Source: Schmidtea polychroa (Eukaryota). Taken from it: DNA of 64,000 nt. Position 1 is the stretch's first letter. The number at the start of each line of letters is the position of its first letter. This document shows positions 17,618-64,000 of this stretch, piece by piece. The notes beneath the pieces were generated by a model that was given only the letters and a program-made list of their open reading frames with translations, ran no database searches and had not been told where the DNA came from. Made by a program: the position numbers and the translations under genes. The DNA is taken from positions 129,270,001 through 129,334,000 of the forward strand of contig CM097886.1 of assembly GCA_044892525.1 (NCBI GenBank). Direction: 5' to 3'.

Positions 17618-19643
17618 GTCTAGACTCTAGACAGAAATGACGTAATAATAAGTTTTTGACATAAATATAATTCTATATGTCGGACTCGCACTTATATTAA
17701 TATTTATTAAAAGCATTTATATACAAAATTTTAGGCTCCTTTGATGTATAAAAAGAGAGTTATCAAATTGTTCTGTTCGGTAGCAGGAAATGTATTCTGT
17801 ATATGATTTCATTAAGTTGATAGTGGTTTTAGAATCCATATCTTTTGTTTGCAAGGATTTACTTACAACATTTATACGTTGAAGTATTTTGTACCACGTC
17901 ACTAACATAACTAAGAAAGAATACTCGCAAAGTTTTCTGTTAATGTTAAACATTCATGTTTAGTTGCTACATCAGCAGAATTTTCATGAAGTATTATTAG
18001 TACATCATAAATTTCAACTATTTGAAACCTCCTAGATTTTATACATTCAATCCAGCTCTCCCAGCGAGTTTCGCATACAGTTTTAATAGTGAAATTAAGA
18101 ACATTATATGTTAAAATTTTCCATCTAGCTACAGACGCCAAAAATAATATATATAATAGTTTTATTACACCAAAAAAGGATATTGCATGAGGACAAGACA
18201 TTGATGCCTCTCCTATAACTAAATTTAATGAATGGGAACCACAAGGCATGTAAAATGCTCGTGGATTTTCTTGAAGCAAGCGTGCTTGTACATCTTTACT
18301 TTTTCCTCGCATGTTGGAGCCATTATCATAACCCTGCCCTCTAATATTGTTAATATTTAATTTTAATTCAAATAGTTGTTGTTTAGTTTTATCAAATATA
18401 TATTCACCAGTGGATTCGTTTATTTCGTAAAAAGAAAATAAAATGTTCTTGAGCGACTACAATAGATTCAGTTAAATCTACATAGAGTTACTCTTTATGG
18501 TTAATATCAGGTGTACAATCTAGTATAATAGAAAAATATTTGGCCAGTTTGATTCGCTCTATTAAATTTTCGCGAACAGATGATGCCAAAAAATTTATTA
18601 TTTCGTTTTGAATTGTCTTACTGCAGTAAGTTACTCATGTTTCATGAGATAGAGTTCCCCATGCATGTTCGTGCCTGACTACATCATATTTACTTAATAA
18701 TTCTACCAACCCTAAAAAATTTCCACTATTTTTAGTAATTAACTGATCTCAAGATCTACGGAAAGCCAAATTATTCATTGATAAAATAATATAATATTGT
18801 AGAGCACATTTTTTCAATGTTCTTTTTCTTTACCAATCATCTACTGCAATTTTTTGTCAATTTCTTTATTTTTGTGGAATCTTGCGGTTTTTTCAATCAA
18901 CTTAAAATGATTTTTGATATGCTCAGATGCATTTTCATGTTTTTTTTACAATAGTCATTTTTATGCTTCCAATTGGAAAGGCACTTTCTTCCCAACGCTG
19001 TCACTTTATTAGAATAAAATATTTTACAGCAAATACAATATGCTGGGTCTTGGGTCGGGTCAGAAAATTATTCCTTTCGCACTAGGGGTTGATAGTCCTA
19101 ATTGCACAAGCAACACTGCATCATTCCACAGGACCCTTAACCAAAACCCACACGATCACACTCCGAACAAGACACCCATGATTTACATCATGTTGGCACT
19201 GTGCCATGTCGGCGAGCTACGATGGAGCAGGTGAGCCCCTGCTTTAGGACTACTCCCCCAATCGCAACTCGACTTAACCATCACTCGACTGCCGATAGAA
19301 GGTCTTACGTCATATTCAACATTCTAAGATCTCATGCATCATTTTACTTTGTCATCAAACTCTACTACGACACTCAACACACTAGTTTCGTCTTATTTAG
19401 CGTTCAACAGCAAGTTTTACTACATTACCATCATTTTTATCCTTCCTACACTCAGTCTTACCATATCCCTTCCACGTCTTAGTTCCATCACTCACTATCC
19501 CATCCCCTAATCAGCCATTCATCATGCTCAAGCATTCAACATCGTTCAATTTGACAAGTCACAATAAAGAAAAATGTATTGACGAATTATTACATTAAAA
19601 GTACATTGATAGGGCCACAATTTGTGAAATATCGCAGATACAA

Positions 19644-20400
19644 TCACAGAGTGCTTGGAGAAGTTCCAGCGAAGATCTCATCGAGATCGAAAAAATCTTT
19701 GGCGTTTTCTTCCCATGAGGAGTCGACGGGCGGGACTACCCGGAAGATAGGAAGAGAATGCAGGGTGGATTCTACCGGAGGTACTGGAGCTGGCGGTTGA
19801 ACAGAGGCGATCAGGGCCGCTTCTCTTTCGGCCTGGAGGGCCCTTCTCCTTTTAGTACGCTCAGCCCTAGATGGCTGGCGACGCTTCTTGATCTTCTTCA
19901 CCTCCGGAAGAGTGACCGGGGTAGTCAGATCCACTATCCTGGGGTCAGCGCGACTTGTGCCGGTGCAGACGACTTCGGCTAGGATTGCCGGTTGAGAAAT
20001 ACTGGAGTGGCTTAAGTTGACCTGGTTCGATGGTTTCACCAAAGAGATACCTGAGAGATGATGGGACGGGAATAAATTGTCTTCTTCCGCGAGTGGAATA
20101 TTGACTATCTTTCTTGTGACCGATGCTTGAACGAACACTTTGTGTAACGCCTCGGACTGCTCTTTAATGAGGGCATGCAAAGCGCGGTTTTCCTCTAGTA
20201 CATCATCGCGGCATTTTTCCACTCGGGTGAGTCTCGTCCTCACCTCTTTCATTTGAGTGGGGGAAAAATGTCCCCTCTAAGTGATCTGACTTCTTCTTGA
20301 GGAGGCCAATTTGTGCTTGTAACGTTTGAATCATCTGATTTTTATCCGAACAGGAAAAGCACGGGCGCAAGATCGTGGCATTGGTTGAAGCTTTTGACAT
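19644..20400 (-). pseudogene. Orphan ~251-aa element ORF, copy 1 (2-nt deletion frameshift near 20260)
   Basis: ORFs 20203-20400 and 19644-20252 join into the reading frame that is continuous in copy 2. Contains PCFSC, a heptad-rich region, a basic KKIKKRRQ...KRRR tract and an acidic/aromatic C-terminus. Confidence 0.75.
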
Positions 20401-20525
20401 TCTAGAAATGTAAATGTTTGCATTAACCCTATCATTCCTCTTTATCTCCCAACGTCATCCATCATACCTCGTTACATCATTTCCCAATCATGCCGAGCAT
20501 TCGTCAATCAGTAATACACTGATGT

Positions 20526-20790
20526 TCATAACAACAATAAAATGATGACACTCACATCGACCATAAAGACCACATCAACAACGATATTCAGACTCATGTT
20601 AATGATAACGACAAGAACAACAATCGTAACAATCACCATAATAACGACAACACAAACAACAACATCAATCGTAATAGTATTCCTGATAATGATAATGATG
20701 ATCATAATAATTATGATACTAATAATAATAATAATAATAATCATAATAATAATAGTAATGATAGCAATAAATGCAGTAATAGTCATAGTT
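20526..20790. repeat. Degenerate ATA/ATC/AAC triplet microsatellite inside element copy 1
   Basis: Visible triplet periodicity. Absent from copies 2 and 3. Confidence 0.85.
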
Positions 20791-22576
20791 CATGGGGACC
20801 CCGTGTCTACTTCTAATACACTGAGAAAAGAAATGTCAGAGTTCATTTACTTTACTTGAAAATGGTACTTCCCCACTTAAGAATTACTTTAATTACTTCG
20901 ACTTTTATTATATCAATCAACTTAATTTTTATATCCGATAAGTGAGAATTGTAAATTTTTGGTATTTTAGATATTATCAGCTCAGGTGTTAACTTTATTT
21001 GGAGATGAAATTTTTCTATGCGCCATCTACCGAGTTTGGTGTTTGTGTAATCTCACTGATGACAGACAGATTATCGGCGATTGATGCCTTACGTATACGG
21101 TGGGAATGGTCTTGTGTGGATACAGATGTGGCGATTAACTAATTTCATCGTCGGCTCATGCGTGTGTAGTTATCACAAATGCTAATTTTATGTATGCGGA
21201 TTTTTGTATCCGAGTATTATCTCAATGACTGCTTATCTCGTGTGAATGATCGTCTGTGTCGATGTTACTTTTTATTCACTGAAATATACCAGTTGTGAAT
21301 GAGTAGCCAAAGTGGCTTGTAATTTTTGTGGTAGTTCTATTGCCAACATCGTACTGGAATTAGTGTGGATTTTTATGTGATAATTTAACTTCGATCTGCT
21401 AAAATTCAGTTTCCGGTAACACAAGTACGAGTGGGATTTCTCGAAGCAGTCAAACCTAGCGTAATACGTTTGTGAAATACGAATATGAAGGTTACTTGAA
21501 CTCAAACCTTATTTAAATTTAAACGATTAATGTTAGATGGAAATTCATGGTTTATCGGTGAAGATTGAAATTCACTATAACTTGCTGATTTCGCAACTTT
21601 GGTCGACTTGATTATCAATGGTGGAGACTGTTTTGTTCGTTAATAAGACAAATAGATATGTTGGATCTCACGCAACGTACCAGAGTTATAAGTCGCGAGA
21701 GTCGGAAAATAATTCCTGTATATCAACTAAGTCGAAGGCTTTGTTAGTAGAAATTCATCGTGTCATTGATTTAACTAATATAACATAATCGACGCAGAAT
21801 TTATGGTTCATTGATGAAGATAGTGCTTCCACTTTTCATTACTACGCTGAGTGTTCTGAAAGAGCGTCGATTCTACTGGAATAACGATCGAATTTATGAT
21901 GTAAAGCTTAAGTTGACACGATATATGAATTTTGGTAGGAATTGCGATGACGATAATGAAAATCAAGAGATAATAACTGCCCGACAACATCCGACGAACG
22001 AGGATTGGATCACTTTAGTCATTGCGAAGATTGTTCCACACTACTTTCACGAAATTTTCTATGTTTCCTATACATTATCCTGCTCTATTACTTTTTGACT
22101 TCACCTTTCCTGCGGTGACGTATCAGTGAGGAAACCCTCACGATGACCCGCTCAACCACCACGTCGCTGATGTTATACCTGACCTTCTGGCGAGAGGAAC
22201 CACCCGTGTCCCTCAAGGTGTGGCCAGTTGAACCTCAGAGGCGTTTGATATCAGAATTAAATAGTATATTATACGACTTATAATAGTTAAATTCCATAAT
22301 ATTTAATAAAATCTAAATAAGAATGCATTACAAAAATTTAAGATTTATTGGTGAACAGGAAAAACTACTAACAATTTATCTAAGTAAAGTTGTTATTATC
22401 ATTACTAGCTTAACAAAAATGTTATAATAAATAATCAATCTTTACCTCGTATAAGTTTGAATGGTTCTCCGAGTGATTTGTATATCTGATCCTTGAGTTA
22501 GTCCGGTATAGTATCTGCGATGTACCTTAATGAATATTTTGGTTAACACTGTTGAATGGAAGTTTGATGCTCTTAC

Positions 22577-22660
22577 CTTAATGAATATTTTGGTTAACAC
22601 TGAAAATTCTATTTCAGTGTTTTCCTTATATACTAATTTTTGTGTTTATGCGAGCCAATC
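22577..22660 (-). promoter_or_regulatory. CCAAT + TATA + Inr promoter and 25-nt leader ending in a splice donor (element copy 1)
   Basis: Minus-strand TATATAAG starts at 22632 and the TCAGT initiator A is at 22601 (31 nt spacing). Leader AGTGTTAACCAAAATATTCATTAAG|GTAAG. Same geometry in copy 2 (27944 / 27913). Confidence 0.6.
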
Positions 22661-23629
22661 AAAATTGAGTGCGGCATAATTTTTTTAATTTAATTCGTTT
22701 CCTTTGTTTTTCTTGGTTTTCTTGGTGTTTCCTTATTGTTTTCTTTTATTTTTTATTTATTTTCTTATTTATTATTTAATTTCTATTATTTTACTATTTT
22801 CTCTGGTTTCTACATCTTAATTTTTCGTTTTTTATTTTTTTTTGTTTTAATTCTCTTTGGTTAATTTTTATTATTATTCTTATTGTTTATTTGTATATGT
22901 TTTTAATTTGTTTTTCGCTTTGTTTCCTAATTTTATTTTATTTCTTATTGTTTTCCTCTTAGGTTTTTGAATTATTATTTTACTTTCTAGCCCAACAAAT
23001 ACATCTTATTCGTACTCACTGAATAGGCAAGCCACCTTAAATATTTTGTCCCATTTGCTGTTATTATACATGAAATTTGTAAAACATCGATTATTTGAAT
23101 CTCTAGGATAATTTGTCGACATTTGTATCTTCTAATAAATACGATGATAAAATGTGATCGCGAAAAGCTGAGGGCAAAAGAAAAGGCCATGTAGCTGGAT
23201 CATTATATTGAAAAATACTTTCAGAAATGTAGTCTACATTTTCCTCAGTATTTGTCAATTTTTCGACAGTTGTCATTTCTCTAACATCTGGTAATTGAAA
23301 TCTTTAGTTTCGTTTGAGTTAATAGCACTCAAATTTTTAACATTTTCATTTTGTGATGTACCTTTTCCAAAAGCATTATTAACCAAATTTGAAATAGATA
23401 CATTTGATTGTAGAAAGTTGGATCGATGTGTTGCACTTTCAGAAAATTCTTTCCATTTTTTACGGTTTTGCGATCCAGATAATTTTTTATCTTATTAGGG
23501 TTGAAAATTCCAAATTACTTCAAAAATTTTAATAATTAGAACATGGATTTTAAATATGGTAAAATGTAAAACTTACCAATGTTATTAAAATAAATTTCAG
23601 ATATAATAACTATTGTAGGTCTCGAAGGT

Positions 23630-24215
23630 ATGTAATTTGTATGTAATTGGTATGTAAATGGTATGTAATTGGTATTAGTACTGGTATAGTATGATGACGA
23701 GCGATATTATGTTATAAAAAGCTTGAAGAGCCCGATAGAGTCACCGTTAAAAAAAATAAGGCGGGACAATCGGGGTGCGTGTGTGTAAAAACTTCCGACA
23801 AACGAGCGACAAATAAAAAATGATATTAAAATAATGTAGAAATAACAAACTAATTAACTATTACTATCTTTATTAAAAAAAATATAAAAACCTTGTAGAT
23901 TTGTGGTTGAGAATACTGAGAACTGTTTCTTTAATTGCTTCTACCGGAGATCGGTGAAGGAAAGATTTGTTCTATTTTCTTTTGACTTGAATAAATTTCT
24001 GTTCAAAAATAATTTTGTTCGGTGAAGAAAAGATTTGTTCTATTTTCTTTTGGCTTGAATAAATTTCTGTTCAAAAATAATTTTGTTCGATTTTTTTAAA
24101 ATTTTTCAATATTTGTATAGCGATAATTTACCATAGTAAATTATCGCTATATAGTTTCCTTAATTAATTTTATAGCGAGACTTACGCCCAACGAAATGGA
24201 CTAACGCCCCGTATC
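23630..24215. mobile_element. Solo-LTR-like interspersed repeat (family with ~37610-37830 and ~41575-42225)
   Basis: Shared CCCGATAGAGTCACC...GGGACAATCGG core and CTTTATT signal, plus an internal 68-bp tandem duplication (23951-24086). Probably continues at 28282-28316 after the copy-2 insertion. TSD not resolved. Confidence 0.5.
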
Positions 24216-24830
24216 CTTGTGCTGGGTCTTGGGTCGGGTCAGAAAAATATCTTCACATACCAGGTGTTGATAGTCCTATACGCACATGTAGCATGTCCTC
24301 ATTCCACGGGACCCTTAACCAAAACCCACACGATCATACTACGAGCATTACACCCATGATTCGCATCATGTTGGTACTGTGCCATGTCGGCGAGCTACGA
24401 TGGAGCAGGTGAGCCCCTGCCTTAGGACTACTCCTCCATCGCAACTCGACTTAACTATCACCGACTGCCGGTAGAAGGACTTACGTCATTGTCATCATTC
24501 TAAGATCCTATGCATCAACCCGATTGTCAACTAGTCTCCAACACGACACTCCATTCGCTGTTTTGACTTCATCTAATGTTCGACAGCAATTATTTACCAT
24601 ACTACCATTACATCGGTACTTTATAAATTCAGCCTTGTCATGGCCCTTTCGACCATTACCCTCATCGTTCACTACTTAATTTCACATTCGAAAAAATTCA
24701 ACACCAATCCAAACATTCACAATTATTTAATTTATCAATCCACAACAAGAAAGTGTATTTAAAAAACAACAAGATACATAGACGGGGTATGACAAGAGAT
24801 ACATTTGCGAGTGACAACCTGGGAGGTGGA

Positions 24831-25401
24831 TCACAAGGTGCTTGGAGAAGCTCCAGCAAAGATTTCGTCGAGATCGAAAAAATCTCTAGCGTTTTCCTCC
24901 CAGGACGAGCTGGTGGGCGGGACTACCCGGAAGACAGGAGGAGAACGATGGGCAGGCTCCGTCTGTACAGATGTCTTCGGCTGGAACCGTCGGCTGGGAA
25001 ATATTCAAATGGCTTAGATAGGCCTGATTTACTGATTTGGTCAATGAGATCCCCGAGAAATGGTGGGTCGGGAATAGATTGTCCTCTTCAGCGAGTGGAA
25101 TATCCACTATTTTCTTAGTAACTGACGCTTGCACATACACCTTGTGCAGTGCTCCCGACTGTTCTTTGATTAGAGTGTGCAAAGCGCGGTTTTCTTCTAA
25201 TACGTCGTCTCGGCACTTCTCTACTCGGGTGAGTCTCGTCCTCACCTCCTTCATTTGTGCTGTGGAGAAATAAGTCCCTTCTAAATGATCCGATTTCTTT
25301 TTCAGGAGGCCATTTTGGGTCTGGAGAGTCTTTATCAGCTGATTTTTATCAGTGCAGGAGAAACATGGGCGCACGACAGTGGTGGCTGGAATCTTGGACA
25401 T
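24831..25401 (-). pseudogene. Orphan element ORF, copy 2 (internal ~175-nt deletion with frameshift)
   Basis: ORF 24886-25401 matches the copy 1 N-terminal half. The alternative frame to the TGA at 24831 encodes FRVVPPTSSSWEENARDFFDLDEIFAGASPSTL, matching the copy 1 C-terminus. Confidence 0.75.
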
Positions 25402-27252
25402 TTCTAAAACTGAAGGAAATTCTGTTAAAAATTAAGCCGTGTCTAGCAAGCTCACAACCACTACCATACTCATTGAGTATTACTCAATCAAACGTCACTT
25501 CATTGTAAAGGGAAATCATAATAGCTTAACCGAAAGATCAATTCGACCACATAAACCGTGCACCTACCAGAAAACTTCGGAATCTGGATAAATTACGACA
25601 ATCAGAAATTTCGCTAAAGGAGAATTTGGTCAAAAACCATTTTAAACACCTATGACATTCATGGGCGGGTTCCCGTTTATTACTGGGAAGTGAGCTATTC
25701 CCCAAAAAGTCAGACATGTTAAATTATTAAATTAAACATTTATTATTAAAGTAAATTTATTTATAAATTGAATTTTAGAAAAATTGACATTTGTGCCGTT
25801 CGATCGTCATTCGCGATCTTATCGGTGTAAAGTTGGTCAGCGGTCGTGTTCTATCATCATCGTACAGTTCGGTTAAATTCTCAGTGTGATATCATGGTGT
25901 GGTTAGTTTACGTGATATGTGAGTCTACGCCTCGATTCGGTGTGATTGGAATGCTGGTGGGCTTATCTGTTTTTCTAGTGCAGTCGCTGTTCATGTCGCT
26001 TTCATTATCAATCGTTTTTGTCTAAACGGTTTATCTATGCACGACCTTATGTGTGATTATGATAATTGTGAAAAAACTATTGTGGATTCTCACCAGTATA
26101 CGTTCGGTTAATGTCACTACCGAATAGTCGCCTTATTAAACAACCAAATTGACAAAGTTATCGGCCATGCCGTTCAGAGTGTCTAAACAGTTTGATTTTA
26201 CCACTGGGTATTTACCTAAAAGTAAATCATTAGTTGGTGGAGGTTAAGTTATTCTGAACGATGAGTTACTTGTATCGAGACTCGGTCTTTCGGTCTATTC
26301 TACTCCTAGTGTTCCTCAGCATAAGTTCACTGGTTCAACCTGGTTTCAACTCGAAATTGTTATCCGTTCTATGGCGATTTGAGTACCGGTGACGATTTTC
26401 GGCGAAAGTAGCAAATTTACTCAATTTATGATCCCTACAGCTCTAAGATAGTCTTGCCGTACATGACTTTCAGACGACTCAAAAACGACGATGGACATTA
26501 GATGCTCTATTTCTCTGAAATGGCACGAGACGAGTGACGTTTCCGCTACCTTACTCATTGCGAAGATTCACGATTAATCATGCTGAAAAATTATATTTAT
26601 ACTCCTTTCAATTTTACCATTTCATTTTTCCCTTTACGATTTTTAATTCATACTTCTTCCTCTGGTGACAGATCAGTGAGGAAACCCCCACGATGACCCG
26701 AGTTCAACCACTGCGCCGCTGAAGTAACATCCGACCTTCTGGCAAGAGGATCAACCAGTCTCCCTCAGCTGTGGCCAGCTGAACCTCAGCTGTGGCCAGC
26801 TGAACCTCAGCGTCGCGTAATACGTATGTCATCATTAAAGCATAATTCACTACACTCCTTTGATCAAATATTATGTAAAGCATATATGAAACACTAAAGA
26901 ATAATTTACTGAAAAATTTTCATCAATACTATAAATTTAATTAAAGGTGAACAAAGAAAATTCGAATCTCATCATAAAACTTTTAATTTAAATTAGATTG
27001 GTTTACACTACATCTTAAAATACCAAATTAAAATTTAACTTTTCTAAATTTCCCAATGTTGCTCCTTGATAAATCGAAATCGTTGAATCCCCTTGTGATT
27101 TGTGGTTAACGAATAAATTGCTTCGGAATTAGTCCTATCGATTGAAGTTGTTGATCCTTGAAATGTTTAGTTCACCTTAAATAATTGCTGGGTTAACACT
27201 CTGAAAACTTTTCTAAAATGCATGCTTACCTTAAATAATTGCTGGGTTAACA

Positions 27253-27903
27253 CAGTGGCGTATCTAGGGTTCACGGCGCCCGGGGCAAAACTTAAAATTG
27301 CGCCCCTCTCCACGTGAATTTTTTCTTTTCCTTATTATTGGTATATTATTTTTGCACTAAAGTGACATTTTTTTTTAAGAAAAAAAAATTATTATTTAAA
27401 AAAAATCAAAAATTTTCACTCTTTAAAATTGATTTGCAGCAGTTTTAAAAAAAATTAATTTAATTTTGCAACAAGTTAGTTTTAAACTTTATTTATTGTA
27501 ATAATTTACAAACAAATTTTTCGTGCTTTAACACTTGCGAACTTGTCAATGACATCATCAAAGTTAATTTTGTTCACAGTGTTTTTCTCAATACTTAATA
27601 ATGCCAAATTATTTAAACGTTCTTCACTCATTGTTGCTCGAAGATATGACAAAATTAATTTTAATTTGCTAAAGGAACGCTCGCATGTTGAAACAGAAAT
27701 ACCAATTGTCAAAAGAATTTGCAATGAAATTCTTAAATTTGGGAAAACATCTTCACCATAAGATATTAAAAATTTTAAAAGATCTATAGGTATTTTGGAA
27801 TTTCATCTTTTCGAGCATTAAGAAGCATTTTACAGTCAGTAACTTCATTGCATAGTTCGTTTTCATCAAATGCCCCGCTTGCCCGGCCCTAGATACGCTA
27901 CTG
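27253..27903 (-). mobile_element. Internally deleted hAT element (651 bp) with ZMYM1-like C-terminal fragment
   Basis: 17-bp TIRs CAGTGGCGTATCTAGGG / CCCTAGATACGCTACTG (16/17 match) and 8-bp TSD GGTTAACA (27245-52, 27904-11). ORF 27506-27724 (CERSFSKLKLI..YLRATM.EERLN.LALL) is a dimerisation domain. Confidence 0.95.
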
Positions 27904-28519
27904 GGTTAACACTGAAAATTTTATTTCAGTGTCTCCCTTATATACTTAATTTTGTGTTTATGCGGACCAATCAATATTGAGCGCGGTGTAATTTTTTAAT
28001 TTAATTCGGTTTCTTTGTTTTCCGTAGTTTTCTTGGTGTTTCCTTATTGTTTTTATTTTTTATTAATTTTCTATTATTTTACTATTTTTTCCGGTTTTCT
28101 TATCTTAATTTTTAATTTTTTGTTTTAATTCTCCTTAGCTAATTTGTTATTATTTATTCCTATTGTTTATTTGTCTGGATTTTTAATTTATTTTCGATTT
28201 GTTTCTGATTTTTATTTTATTTCCTCGTGTTTTCCTCTTATGCTTTTTAAATTATTACCTTTCCTTCCAGCCCAACACTTGTTTAAACATAAAAAAGAAT
28301 AAGATTGTACATTACAATAACTAATAATAAAGATAAATAAAAATAATTAGCACAAAAGTACGATATTTTTTAAATCAACAGGTTTGTTTTACACATTTCG
28401 TAAATATATATTAATATATATTTGTTGTCACTAGCAGAATATATCGAATACTGACGAAACATGAAAATAAGCACGTCTAAACAAGTTTATAAACGGTTAA
28501 ATTTTTATAGCTTCATAAA

Positions 28520-38675: not shown

Positions 38676-39371
38676 TTATATATCTTTCTTACGAATGGCA
38701 GCTCTATTTGTAATCACGGCTTTGTATCCAGCAGATTGTTTAGCAACGACGTTCCGAGATCCACAGGCTCTACAATTGAGAAACAATAGACGAGTTTCAT
38801 TTTCTAACTCAGTGTTACTCGACTTGCAGGCCTGACACAATACATAGGCATTGCAGTAATTTCTTATCAGACTTTCCATCTGTGTAGTTTGAAAGCGACC
38901 TCTTATAATCAATTGATTATTTTGATCTAAACTGCTTGTTGATCCGACTTCATTTTCTAAATATTGTTTCACATCCGACATAGCACGATTAAGACATTTG
39001 CAAACCATGCCGAAATTTGTGAAACAAGTTTTTTTGGTTCCCAGTTTTGCTAATGAAGGAGGAACGACTTTCAATTTCTCTTTATTTGCTCCCATTAACT
39101 TAGGATTTATTTGATATAATTTGTTGTATATTTTCCCAAGGATTTGTTCATAATTATAATCGTCGTTTTCACAGGGATCAAGATTTGATTCCTGAATTTC
39201 CAACACATCTTCTAGTTTGAATTGATCTCTACGTTTTTTCCTTCTCCCTTCAAATGACAATTGATGAGGAAATGAATCGTCGAAATCATTATAAAGAATT
39301 TCTGTCTTTTCTTGAAAAGAAATTTTGGTTTTCTTTTTCTTTAGAATTTTAGAAAAATTAATATCAGACAT
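38676..39371 (-). CDS. EIF2S2: Translation initiation factor eIF2 beta subunit, copy 1 (231 aa, intronless)
   Basis: Lys box KKKKTK, YEQILGKIY helix, PPSLAKLGTKKTCFTNF, YLENEVGSTSSLD, RGRF and a C2-C2 zinc finger (CQAC...CRAC) are eIF2B/eIF5-family hallmarks. Confidence 0.92.
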   Translation of the reverse strand: MSDINFSKILKKKKTKISFQEKTEILYNDFDDSFPHQLSFEGRRKKRRDQFKLEDVLEIQESNLDPCENDDYNYEQILGKIYNKLYQINPKLMGANKEKLKVVPPSLAKLGTKKTCFTNFGMVCKCLNRAMSDVKQYLENEVGSTSSLDQNNQLIIRGRFQTTQMESLIRNYCNAYVLCQACKSSNTELENETRLLFLNCRACGSRNVVAKQSAGYKAVITNRAAIRKKDI

Positions 39372-39578
39372 TTGATGAATATGATGAAACTACTCGAATA
39401 CATTTAAACAAATTAAGATGTTCATAGTTTCCGTAAAATAACATTTTCTGTATATTTCCGTATATATTTTGAATTCAAATTATTGAAAAATATTATTTAA
39501 CACATTTACCTATATATAAAATTGTCAGTCTCTATAAAATGTTTCAAAATTTAAGATAGGATATTTAAGTCCTACTAA

Positions 39579-46372: not shown

Positions 46373-47068
46373 TTATATATTTTTCTTACGAATAGCAGCT
46401 CTATTTGAAATCACGGCTTTGTATCCAGAAGATTGTTTAGCAACGACATTCCGAGATCCACAAGCTCCACAATTGAGAAACAATAGACGAGTTTCATTTT
46501 CTAACTCAGTGTTACTCGACTTGCAGGCCTGACACAATACATAGGCATTGCAATAATTTCTTATCAGACTTTCCATCTGTGTAGTTTGAAAGCGACCTCT
46601 TAAAATCAGTTGATTATTTTGATCTAAACTGCTTGTTGATCCGACTTCATTTTCTAAATATTGTTTCACATCCGACATAGCACGATTAAGACATTTGCAA
46701 ACCATGCCGAAATTTGTGAAACAAGTTTTTTTGGTTCCCAGTTTTGCTAATGAAGGAGGAACGACTTTCAATTTTTCTTTATTTGCTCCCATTAACTGAG
46801 GATTTATTTGATATAATTTGTTGTATATTTTCCCAAGGATTTGTTCATAATTATAATCGTCGTTTTCACAGGGATCAAGATTTGATTCCTGAATTTCCAA
46901 CACATCTTCTAGTTTGAATTGATCTCTACGTTTTTTTCTTTTCCCTTCAAATGACAATTGATGAGGAAATGAGTCATCGAAATCATTATAAAGAATTTCT
47001 GTCTTTTCTTGAAAAGAAATTTTGGTTTTCTTTTTCTTTAGAATTTTAGAAAAATTAATATCAGACAT
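46373..47068 (-). CDS. EIF2S2: Translation initiation factor eIF2 beta subunit, copy 2 (231 aa, intronless)
   Basis: Intact ORF with 7 amino-acid differences from copy 1. Confidence 0.92.
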   Translation of the reverse strand: MSDINFSKILKKKKTKISFQEKTEILYNDFDDSFPHQLSFEGKRKKRRDQFKLEDVLEIQESNLDPCENDDYNYEQILGKIYNKLYQINPQLMGANKEKLKVVPPSLAKLGTKKTCFTNFGMVCKCLNRAMSDVKQYLENEVGSTSSLDQNNQLILRGRFQTTQMESLIRNYCNAYVLCQACKSSNTELENETRLLFLNCGACGSRNVVAKQSSGYKAVISNRAAIRKKNI

Positions 47069-47779
47069 TTGATGAATATGATGAAACTACTCGAATACAT
47101 TTAAACAAATTAAGATGTTCATAGTTTCCGTAATATAACATTTTCTGTGTATTTCCGTAGATATTTTGAATTCAACATATATTTTTATAAATTGGTTTAT
47201 ATTTGTCTACCATACACAAATATTATCTTCATTACGATTTATCACAAGATATTATATATAATAGAAAATTGAAAATTCTTCATCGACATCCTCGCCACTT
47301 AAAGAATAAAATCAAATAAACATTCAACAAGTTCTGGCGAATAAAAGATTTATTATAATTATATAATCTGGAAATATATGCGAAATTTTTATCATAAATA
47401 AAAAGGACCGCCCTCGGCTCTGGCCATACACTGTGGCAATTATCCGTTGAAGATCAAAGGAATCGCTGAAACTTGTCACGTTTTCAGGAGTCTTTTTACT
47501 TATATGTAAAAGAATATGCGACTGAGCAATTACTGGGATTGATTTTGTGAGATTTCTGGTAATTCTGTGATTCTCTTTAAAATAGTTGTCGTTGGTTTTG
47601 GCCCATATAATATATTTTTTTATATTTTTATATTTTTTATATTTCATTGTCATTTAGAACCTAAATTTTTGCATTTCTCAACAAATCAAGGATAATATCA
47701 ATAATTTTCTCGCTCAATTGATCTGGCTACGATATCGAAGAAATGAGACATCTGGGTAAGCAGCTTTTGTTTTGTTTAA

Positions 47780-55339: not shown

Positions 55340-56091
55340 GACTGCAGATAATCATTGCCTAGATGGAGAAGCTTGGTCATTCCATCTCTCCTATTTTAGC
55401 GGCTCAAAACTCATTCCCTTCTACTTCTCGGAGCAGACGATCAGTTTCTCCTTCAAGTTGTGGGTCTTCCAATCATGGAGTGCCGACAGCTGGTATCACT
55501 CTATAGTAGTTCAGTTATTGCTTGAGTAGCGATGAGTCCAGTCTTGGTTGGAAGGGATCCGAGAATAGCGCGGCTTCGACAGCGGCTAACTCATCCTTCT
55601 TGAGCATAGAACGCTGCACTGGTGTGAGCTTCCTTCTTTTCGGGCGATTGATTGGGTTAGAAGTGGATGGCATGGCAAAAGGTGCAAGCGTTACTAGTTC
55701 CAATGTAGACAATATCCGGTGCGGGTGAAGTAGAGACAGGTGGTTCTTTTAGATGGCTTGGAGTCATCTGGCAAGTGATGAATTGGAAATATATTGTGTG
55801 TGTCAGAGATTGGACATTTCGTGATGCGTTTGCGTAACTCGGACTCGGATGAGATTCGATGCAATATCATTGATTGTTCTTTGATAATGAGTCTCTGATT
55901 TCTACTCTCTTCTAGCAGGTTATCCCTGCAATATTCTAGCCTCAAGAATTTACGATTTGCCTCCCCTCCATGTGGTCAATACGTTTTGTCAGACTCCTGA
56001 TCTCCAATTGCACCTTTCTCATCATTGCATTTTTGTCTGCGCATGAAAAACACGGTTTTACGCCAGACTTGGTTAGAGTTGGTTCCGAAAT
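55340..56091 (-). pseudogene. Orphan element ORF, diverged copy 3 (multiple frameshifts, ATG position reads ATT)
   Basis: VKPCFSCADKNAMMRKVQLEIRSLTKRIDHMEG, RLEYCRDNLLEE..IKEQS, NIFPIHHL, RPKRRK..EAAL and RVIPAV align to copies 1 and 2. Confidence 0.75.
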
Positions 56092-56699: not shown

Positions 56700-56912
56700 C
56701 AGTGGTTCTCAAAGTGTGGGTCGCGACCCACGATGGGGTTGTAGAAATTTCAAGAAAACGGAAGATTGTAACTAAAAAAAATATTAGGTTGGCTTCAAAA
56801 TAAAATATTTTTTGAATATAATAAATATTTTATTTTATATTACTATTTTCATCGACAGAATATTTGCTAGGGTTAATGAGGTCGCTAAGTAAAAAAGGTT
56901 TGAGAAGCTCTG
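56700..56912. mobile_element. hAT (Charlie/Buster-type) MITE, 213 bp
   Basis: TIR CAGTGGTTCTCAAA / TTTGAGAAGCTCTG, 8-bp TSD CCTTAGAG (56692-99, 56913-20). Confidence 0.9.
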
Positions 56913-58131
56913 CCTTAGAGAGTAGTAATAGCAATGAAAGATGCAAGACTGGCAGGGAAGGCTTCGCTGGGCAGCGATGACCCATTTAAACATGGTGGCG
57001 AGTTTCATTTGGATTATAGTACCAGAACTACCGTATCATAAGTTTAATTGAATCAGTTTGATATATTTACATTTCTCAACTGCTACTGTCGTGAGATAAA
57101 ATTGAATTGAGGTTTCTAAGTGTTATCAGAGGTTATAAACAAATGTGCGGTGATACCATAAATTTAATTAATCTTGGAAAGTTTCCAAGAATTTCCAAGT
57201 TAATTCGGCCAGCGCTAAATAGATTGTCGACCTGATCTCAATCACTCTCGCCTTTTGGCTTATTAAAACCCTTCTCTCGAGATATTGTTTACCTATCATT
57301 TGTCGGTCTGCAACTTTTATTTGCATTCAAGGTGATGTCGATTTGCTAGATCGGAAACCTTTTGTTGATTTGACAAATATCAGAGTAACTTCGTCTATCA
57401 TATGAACTGATTAAATATTCTATGCAATTCCATAAAATCTCAGGGAAACATGATGCTAACGACTATTATCATCTTATACTTATTTCAGACGACTCATTCA
57501 ACGGGAATGATATTCTATCACCACTTTACAAAAAAGAATCTATACCATTTCTCCTGCCGGAATTTTCATCATCAATTTCGTCATTGTACCATACTAGTTT
57601 CCCTATCAATACTATGAGTTGAAGATCTTAACTGAACTATACACTACTCTGAATTTATGATAATTACTGCTATTGATTCGATCTATATTGTTCCACGTTC
57701 TCATTTAGTCGATTAACCGAGTTTCTACGATGGAGTTCCTAATCGCTCCTACTGGATCTTATCTCGACTTCCAAAAACTCTCTACATTCAACTTAGATTT
57801 CCTATTACTATACTCAAATCGGTCAAAATGAACTCTATATTCTATTAACAATCCTATCTCTGACTTCATAAAACAGTGCGCCAAACTGTCCAACACCCGC
57901 TGTCGGATCAGCACGAGTGCCAATGGTTCACGAACATCTTTCAATCTGGTGGCATCAATAAATCAGCAAAATCATAAAAAATGAATCATCCATAAAATCA
58001 TAAAATCCTTGAAAATTGTTATAATTACTTCTACTTTTAATAAAATATTCATAAAATTGTGAGAGGAAAAAGAAAGTTTGTTTGTTTAAAAATTGTTATA
58101 GTTATAAATACAATACTTTACTACTAATATA

Positions 58132-62900: not shown

Positions 62901-63885
62901 CGAAATTAGCATCTGTATCAACAATTAATCAATCAAAGCGAAGTATAGTTGGTAGTGACATCAATTGAGTAAAGTAGTGGCGAATTATCCGATGAGTGCT
63001 TGAATGAAAATGTTTCTATTATGTCACCTGATGCGTTAATGGAAACTGATACACAGATAAAGAAAGGAAATAACAATGTACAATAAATTTAGATTTGCAA
63101 TTTTTAAGCTGAGAAAATTTTATTTTTGGACATTTTTAAAATTTGGGAAATTTAAAATTTTGGGATTTTTCGAGTTGGAAATATCTTGTAAATATGTTGT
63201 ATTTTTTCCAATTTTTTTATATAAAAGTTTTATCTAAGTGGTGTGCCTTGAAATACTTTGTTTTCAAAATTTTATCCAGGTATTTTTATATGTCAAGACC
63301 TTCATATTAAAGTACTTTGAGTAGAACTACATAATTTTTCAAAGATTTTCTAAGTCAGTGATTTGATCTATCTATTTTTAAAAAAAAATTCGAAGTATTT
63401 CATTCAATCTTTTGTTCATTGTAACACCATGTGTTGAAAAATATGGTTTTATTTCTATCATATAAGATCACATGTGTTTGATAATACAGTAACTACTCTC
63501 TTATCCGCCAAAAACGGGACTATAAAAAAGGTGGCGGTTTCTAAAAAATGACGGCTTTTAGAGTAAAAAATAATAAAATTTAATAAAAAAATCTAGTAAA
63601 AAATTCATTTCTTTATTGTGCAGTTATCTAAAGTCATATTAAATTTTCGTTTTTTCTGTTTTTAATTTTAATTTAGAGACTTTGGAGCTCATTTCCATGG
63701 GAACTAAGCATTTTTAATGTATAAATACCATATAATCAATATATTGGATCTAATAGAAAAATAATATCTATCTAATATATTATCCTATGACATATTATAC
63801 TATGTATTTTATAAAAATAGAAAAAGTATTCAAAATTAAAGAAATTATGAAAAACTATATTTTATAAAGCTTGAATATGTGATTA

Positions 63886-64000
63886 TTATATATCTTTCCT
63901 ACGAATGGCAGCTCTATTTGTAATCACGGCTTTGTATCCAGCAGATTGTTTAGCAACGACGTTCCGAGATCCGCAAGCTCCACAATTGAGAAACAATAGA
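63886..64000 (-). CDS. EIF2S2: eIF2 beta subunit, copy 3 (C-terminal 38 codons; continues beyond the window)
   Basis: Encodes LLFLNCGACGSRNVVAKQSAGYKAVITNRAAIRRKDI*, nearly identical to the copy 1 and 2 C-termini. Confidence 0.85.
   Translation of the reverse strand, partial: LLFLNCGACGSRNVVAKQSAGYKAVITNRAAIRRKDI

Follow-up and report, generated by a model that had tools for sequence, protein, structure and literature searches.

A conserved accessory gene within the long terminal repeats of a Burro-type Ty3/gypsy element of Schmidtea polychroa

The window analysed here is a stretch of 64,000 nucleotides from the planarian Schmidtea polychroa (assembly GCA_044892525.1, contig CM097886.1, positions 129,270,001 to 129,334,000), in which six-frame translation and tblastn revealed three copies of a single open reading frame (ORF), all on the minus strand. 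Copy 1 (19644..20400) runs from an ATG at 20400 to a stop codon ending at 19644 and comprises 757 nt, 2 nt less than in a relative of 252 codons, and its frame shifts near codon 45. Copy 2 (24831..25401) shows an internal frame-shifting gap of ~185 nt when compared with its closest natural relative (L026). Copy 3 (55419..56091) is kept in pieces with several frame changes and belongs to a divergent clade, its core sharing 61% identity with a member of another clade (L127) versus ~42% with copies 1 and 2. The original prediction that each copy is broken in its own way holds for the 2-nt loss of copy 1 and the frameshifts of copy 3, whereas the gap of copy 2 had been put at ~175 nt.

Both copies 1 and 2 lie inside long terminal repeats (LTRs). 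The repeat around copy 1 (19041..22997, minus strand, 3,957 bp, TGTTGGGCT...GACCCAGCA) has TG...CA ends shared by its relatives and a 4-bp target duplication, AATA, and the one around copy 2 (24220..28277, minus strand) is flanked by the duplication CTTG; the LTR ends of copy 3 are not fixed. A DNA-transposon-like insertion interrupts the copy 2 LTR (~27253-27903) at the first of two repeated units described below; like another one near copy 3 (~56700-56915), it is small and has short inverted ends together with what look like 8-bp duplications. When the same genome (781 Mb) was searched with the protein, at least 152 matches were obtained from 150 scored candidates, many with open frames, and the 3′ end of the LTR occurs in 72 exact copies. 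Boundaries were found for 13 of the 20 relatives fetched with their flanks, and perfect 4-bp duplications border 12 of these 13 units of the clade of copy 1, the remaining one having a single mismatch. Such ends and duplications are those of solo LTRs. In this clade no paired LTRs were seen, and the sole evidence of a primer site comes from the 5′ LTR of one locus (L046), downstream of which come a primer-binding site and a leader with 71-80% similarity to the leader of full elements. A hammerhead ribozyme considered for the middle of the LTR was discarded, since its core differs by eye between copies 1 and 2 and a search of Rfam with window positions 19000-28400 gave no match.

The context of the ORF is completed by a divergent relative, whose matches among the 150 scored form at least 37 same-strand pairs, most of them 25.7-26.5 kb apart. 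In nine pairs compared, the LTRs are 3.9-4.2 kb long and 99.45-100% identical, with the ORF open in both LTRs in eight cases and target duplications visible also in eight. An ORF-to-ORF spacing of ~26 kb plus one LTR of 3.9-4.2 kb gives an element of ~30 kb in total. In these paired elements the ORF has the same sense as a giant polyprotein, which rules out an antisense HBZ-like frame; a DNA transposon with short inverted ends was also ruled out, because the units come as LTR pairs and are accompanied by a primer site. Pfam searches with separate pieces of two young elements detected Retrotrans_gag, CCHC knuckles, an env-like fusion domain, protease, reverse transcriptase (RT), RNase H (RH), integrase (IN) and ankyrins, in the order gag-PR-RT-RH-IN. 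The env-like fusion glycoprotein (PF24664, E 7e-68) precedes the RVP protease domain in one open frame, whereas the ankyrin repeats lie 3′ of integrase. RING ORFs are found in the leader, where the frame is of the IAP type, and in the 3′ region; further accessory ORFs occur at L112:1-2434, L130:4964-6500 and L111:7167-7652, four or five of them, including one RING, 3′ of integrase. tRNA-Pro(TGG) genes present in this genome match the primer-binding site, with 617 LTR-primer junctions at up to two mismatches, and the sequence before the 3′ LTR, checked for a polypurine tract, is conserved without a clear purine run. A tandem array of tRNA-Pro(TGG) genes with a period of ~475 bp was observed at G000:C1 ~130.90-130.95 Mb and beyond (L141-L144); the tRNA-Pro 3′ motif has 2,164 exact matches genome-wide, and the tRNA fits the primer site of the element.

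Altogether, the element fits the Burro/GYPSM1 type of planarian Ty3/gypsy retrotransposons, as judged by the published description. In the parts of PMC6431247 covered here, that description includes a length of ~30 kb, a giant polyprotein with gag and CCHC knuckles, RT-RH-IN, ankyrins and accessory ORFs, and an env-like fusion protein that shares the reading frame of the protease and precedes it. As a difference, this text does not mention an ORF, an intron or a division into U3, R and U5 for the LTR, and the MATH, BIR and BCL2 domains of Burro are unseen here: Pfam at E<=0.01 gave no MATH/TRAF, BIR or BCL2-like match in the incomplete pieces of the two elements scanned. The idea of a retroelement accessory protein, already advanced from the window, is thus borne out by an LTR-borne accessory gene of a Burro-type element whose paired LTRs flank gag-pol. 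The qualifier "orphan" attached to it survives at the level of the protein family, but no longer for the genomic context, since the ORF belongs to an LTR.

The intact copies sought are present in the same genome as natural uninterrupted ORFs of 249-254 aa, carried by both LTRs of young elements. From 55 such frames, eight were removed (frame-shifted tails, 3′ twins) and 47 kept, which fall into three clades. Comparison of copies 1 and 2 over codons aligned without gaps gave a dN/dS of 0.09 (dS 1.19, dN 0.11); in the control frames the synonymous excess was absent in four of five, the fifth being the antisense frame that shares third positions. The 13 natural intact ORFs of the same clade gave 0.13, so that the purifying selection originally proposed is confirmed on both sets. 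By region, these 13 ORFs show 0.04 in the N-terminal core, 0.35 in the linker, 0.11 in the basic tract and 0.11 in the tail. Across all clades the ratio ranges from 0.12 to 0.44 by divergence bin, with 678 of 1081 pairs saturated; pairs are non-independent and the choice of open frames pushes the ratio down, but the two broken window copies agree. Private changes of copy 1, used as a check for drift after insertion, are 10 synonymous versus 4 non-synonymous and mostly reflect its lineage. Selection acted on replicating master elements rather than on the three window copies, which are decayed. We regard it as virtually certain that window copies 1 and 2 are solo LTRs holding, in sense orientation, an ORF that evolved under purifying selection.

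Among 25 natural intact relatives, the invariant positions are P-C-F-x-C-x-x-K-N, E42, T44, R60, C64, E71, R76, L86-H87, F-P-x-H and R221. Of the motifs initially listed from the window, the PCFSC-type and F-P-x-H ones are therefore fixed in these relatives, while the H of DH(L/M)EG is variable and RV(V/I)P keeps only its R. The CxxC pair, initially listed among the suggestive features, falls outside the deepest conserved core and is missing in all five distant relatives aligned, which discards it as a defining catalytic or zinc site.

An AlphaFold2 model whose global confidence is low (pTM 0.33) places helices at residues 15-41 and 48-100, a disordered linker at 116-171, an Arg-rich helix at 179-200 and short helices in the tail at 230-244. 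The tail is conserved as F/V-D/N-L/I-D-E-x-L/F, acidic and with spaced hydrophobic residues. In this regard, the coiled coil, basic tract and acidic-aromatic tail suggested at the outset reappear as predicted features of the model. Homology searches were mostly negative. Pfam with window pieces and the 25 natural members reported only sub-threshold coiled-coil families, without RRM, PHD or esterase domains in those members; a sequence search of the PDB gave one match (E 0.37), the ESM Atlas a best value of 0.85, at lead level only, Foldseek only generic helices, without a match at E<=0.001 in its viral and PDB libraries, and a word-indexed homologue search, in the length range covered, 0 matches for one protein and for the alignment. 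No bZIP or other DNA-binding family was matched, and no solved structure showed homology, nor did Rev, Rex, Tat or Tas. A confident match to a gag, ORF1p or host family, the outcome named beforehand as fatal to the idea, did not appear in Pfam, the PDB, the ESM Atlas or Foldseek, and the protein is without match among known families or folds. A full HMMER scan of 1.84 billion representatives returned 18 proteins at E<=0.001, one of them a likely chance match and 17 unnamed, mostly chimeric-looking gene models. These 17 have in common a helix-GTW..P-helix-E.R.QR-P.H core, accompanied in most by the Arg-rich tract. As gene models, these distant relatives (P0001-P0016 and P0018) appear fused to unrelated host proteins and may be annotation artefacts, probably because predictors used a strong splice acceptor that precedes the ATG.

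Such an acceptor is predicted at 20402..20417 (minus strand) as a pyrimidine-rich tract plus TAG that ends 1 nt before the ATG of copy 1. In 47 of 52 natural ORFs the last 12 nt ahead of the ATG include a pyrimidine-rich YAG, versus 70 of 1137 control ATGs (upstream, same strand), and the leader RING ORF likewise has an acceptor before its ATG. Upstream, a predicted promoter (22600..22660, minus strand) comprises a reverse CCAAT at 22660, TATATAA at 22632 and an initiator-like TCAGT at ~22603. These signals are kept in the three clades, each with a reverse CCAAT, a TATA box and, ~55 nt past the latter, a GTAAG-type donor; the TATA box lies at LTR nt ~365, except in one clade, where it is at ~520. 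In the clade of copy 1, similarity between LTRs often stops near the donor and returns at the ORF; in young elements the stretch between both exists as two strongly different haplotypes (19 and 16 of 35 elements) despite flanks that differ by 1-3%. This gap in similarity and the haplotype split are those expected of an intron. Speaking against such expression, no polyadenylation signal is conserved past the ORF. Judging from these sequence signals, transcription very probably starts at the initiator-like site near LTR nt 395, and a cap-proximal donor ~25 nt further on would splice over ~2.2-2.4 kb to the acceptor before the ATG. On the side of the haplotypes themselves, termed A (19) and B (16), they span nt ~445-2870 of young-clade LTRs (L145-L174, L112-L122), start exactly after the second of the repeated units and extend into the ORF N-terminus, in elements otherwise ~1-3% divergent.

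Immediately past the start site, a unit of ~25 nt that begins at TATA+31 and ends in AG is duplicated (22526..22600, minus strand). Unit 1 (~22600-22577) is followed by the GTAAG donor at 22576, a variable spacer and unit 2 (~22549-22526), an array within which a 51-nt mini-intron and a scar of first-strand transfer are predicted. Of 35 young elements, 31 have two units and four have one, the latter being without the donor. Those one-unit LTRs (L150, L152, L115, L117) have lost exactly the GTAAG, as though spliced RNA had served as template at both ends. A stretch of 45-55 nt runs from the donor to where unit 2 ends, with a branch-point-like TTAAY in 43 of 45 units; against splicing at this point, unit ends are AAG in nine and AAT in two of 45 rather than YAG. 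Three units occur at none of 61 sites, twins and some false ones being included in this number, and the unit sequences of the three clades are unrelated. Within an element both units are identical in 30 of 31 cases, and one element has a private change in both; over 10 copies, unit identity is 0.98 within a copy versus 0.75 between copies. For the junction before unit 2, 31 elements yielded 12 variants. No other window along the 4.16-kb LTR varies as much (17 copies show 10 haplotypes here versus up to seven elsewhere), and among 17 near-identical young LTRs variation peaks at nt 433-443.

A replication cycle that would account for this arrangement can be proposed. The same donor may alternatively join the end of unit 2, removing a mini-intron of ~50 nt, so that packaged RNA would begin with one unit. 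Minus-strand DNA would then jump to unit 2 on the unspliced 3′ end, which would restore an LTR with two units and leave behind a hypervariable junction where transfer errors accumulate, errors at junctions being a feature of strand transfer. With an RNA start at unit 1 and transfer to unit 2, both new units would descend from unit 1. Transfer at the duplicated unit would also place the gene in a giant U5 of ~3.4-3.7 kb, with short U3 and R, and would rebuild the mini-intron at each cycle. Promoter signals and the junction scar both point to a start upstream of the ORF, and we consider this layout, with the donor joined to the end of unit 2 and the ORF in U5, probable. A window-by-window comparison of linkage is blurred by pervasive recombination. 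Linkage between larger regions offers the layout weak and mixed support: ORF variants are linked to the 5′ leader with r2 0.073 (p=0.005) versus 0.051 (p=0.07) to the 3′ internal region, and U3 variants are linked to the A/B haplotype across the proposed junction with r2 0.135 (p=0.005).

Against this layout, the ORF may be placed in U3, as in MMTV sag or HIV nef, with genomic RNA starting near a conserved structured block ~300 nt before the LTR end; the TATA box and donor at nt ~365-420 would then be no more than a second promoter, serving the ORF, and the duplicated unit ordinary tandem-repeat turnover. The block (19170..19325, minus strand) holds a second GTAAG and a stem-loop with compensatory changes in 17 of 32 predicted pairs (13 sequences, a count inflated by kinship). 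Long LTRs usually have a long U3, a strong-stop DNA of ~3.7 kb would be unusually long, and the partial linkage of U3 variants to the middle haplotype also favours this placement. Ordinary turnover, on the other hand, does not sit well with a unit found once or twice and never thrice, at 45-55 nt spacing and with GT...AG ends, in three clades with unrelated units, nor with a top variable site at nt 433-443 of otherwise near-identical LTRs. Moreover, the ORF shows linkage with the final 300 nt and with the leader, and a TATA-like match near the 3′ end appears in one clade only. A U3 location is considered rather unlikely. Returning to the U5 layout, we give even chances to the broader picture drawn from these signals, that of an env-bearing giant Ty3/gypsy element whose LTR is mostly U5 with an entire spliced gene, whose genomic RNA loses a cap-proximal mini-intron that reverse transcription restores every cycle, and whose solo LTRs would act as regulator cassettes.

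The predicted parts of the protein suggest, tentatively, a Rev/Rex-like regulator of the element's own RNA acting in trans, a possibility that we place somewhat below even. With one cap-proximal donor and several acceptors, the ~26-kb RNA must stay mostly unspliced. The long helices would oligomerise the protein, the Arg-rich helix would bind RNA, and the acidic-hydrophobic tail would recruit a host factor, whereby incompletely spliced ~26-kb RNA would be spared further splicing or exported. The stem-loop near the LTR end is a candidate for the RNA target or, alternatively, for a packaging signal. Rev, Rex and Rec share a domain layout to which the oligomerising helices, Arg-rich helix and short hydrophobic effector motif predicted here are alike, together with the single cap-proximal donor and several acceptors. 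Here the Arg-rich motif and the oligomerisation helices are present by composition and prediction, RNA binding is a candidate property, and the tail, with spaced hydrophobic residues but acidic and short, has no clear leucine-rich export signal; in contrast to those proteins, the helical N-terminus is much longer, the tail is acidic and homology is not detectable. The role of such regulators is summarised in the part of PMC7264820 covered here. The whole account, from decayed solo-LTR accessory gene and spliced RNA to long U5 and Rev/Rex-like trans regulator, falls just short of an even chance.

Keeping the same place and splicing, the protein could instead be a transactivator of the LTR promoter, like Tat, Tax or Tas: a helical dimer with the basic tract as nuclear localisation signal or DNA/RNA binder and the tail as activation domain. 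The conserved tail, acidic and with spaced hydrophobics, presumably resembles activation cores such as that of VP16, and the ORF uses the first long-range acceptor past the promoter, so that it would be an early product. However, the absence of a match to bZIP or other DNA-binding families, a basic tract that comes after and not before the long helices, with a disordered linker between, and an Arg-rich tract that in distant relatives is more like an RNA-binding motif, which we take to resemble that of Rev, make this function rather unlikely. Even less probable is a modulator of the host (apoptosis, ubiquitin, piRNA/antiviral defence) that leaves the element RNA aside, as other Burro cargo would do. 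The elements do carry RING and ankyrin cargo, and apoptosis and ubiquitination domains are described for Burro in the part of PMC6431247 covered here; but that cargo consists of recognisable host domains, while the LTR protein is without host relative and keeps its Arg-rich helix under purifying selection (dN/dS 0.11). As for a derived CR1/L2 ORF1p or another non-LTR element protein, raised originally as an alternative, some ORF1p proteins bear a superficial likeness in having a CxxC at the N-terminus and a long helix after it, but TG...CA ends, 4-bp duplications, paired copies around gag-pol and a tRNA primer site are LTR anatomy, no RRM, PHD, esterase or other ORF1p domain was matched, and the non-LTR features (a linked APE-RT ORF2, a 3′ tail, 5′ truncation) are not those of this element. 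The chance left to this origin is negligible.

Coding frames in LTRs are familiar from retroviruses, where MMTV sag, HIV nef and foamy virus bel/bet are expressed from spliced RNA and lie in or reach into U3. The Ty3/gypsy gene described here differs in that the whole frame plus promoter, donor and acceptor are in one LTR, likely in U5, and it has no sequence similarity to them. In plants, Ogre, Retand and Grande retrotransposons have conserved extra ORFs of unknown function, some nuclear-localised; in the parts of PMC7264820 covered here these lie in the internal region, and the wordings "inside the LTR", "within the LTR" and "in the LTR" are absent from that paper. Burro elements are abundant, transcribed and piRNA-controlled in planarians according to the part of PMC8532177 covered here, and the literature, to the extent covered, describes their LTRs just as long repeats. 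An ORF or intron in Burro LTRs was not found described in the covered parts of the literature (including PMC6431247, PMC8532177, PMC11410931, PMC4558846, PMC7264820 and PMC13238120), and neither was the layout of a U5 ORF with a mini-intron or its strand-transfer outcome; the supplements and figures of the 2018 genome paper or the Repbase GYPSM1 entry may already mark the ORF. The element is thus of a known kind and its LTR carries an accessory gene, in what appears to be an undescribed arrangement. Solo LTRs are normally leftovers without coding capacity, but those of this element, given the conserved gene that they contain, could express a protein acting on full-length elements or on the host. 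Should the U5 and mini-intron layout be correct, even lone repeats would hold a complete gene, and hundreds of solo LTRs would each serve as an independent cassette expressing a trans-acting regulator of a new family. RNA ends, splice junctions and RNAi would then also be direct handles on the control of splicing and export in a 30-kb provirus-like element.

Some other sequences were noticed in passing. A solo LTR of the clade of copy 1 is brought to a length of 4.6 kb by a coding fragment in its middle (L042:5211-6005, minus strand) that we take to be Rab1-like from its motif, possibly a captured host cDNA. Elsewhere in the window there are many transposase remnants, presumably hAT- and Tigger-like. 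Finally, two ~95% identical open frames of 237 aa (38676-39389 and 46373-47086, minus strand), presumably resembling eIF2-beta, are repeated together with their flanks, possibly on a mobile element, and related flanking DNA is found at 63781-64000.
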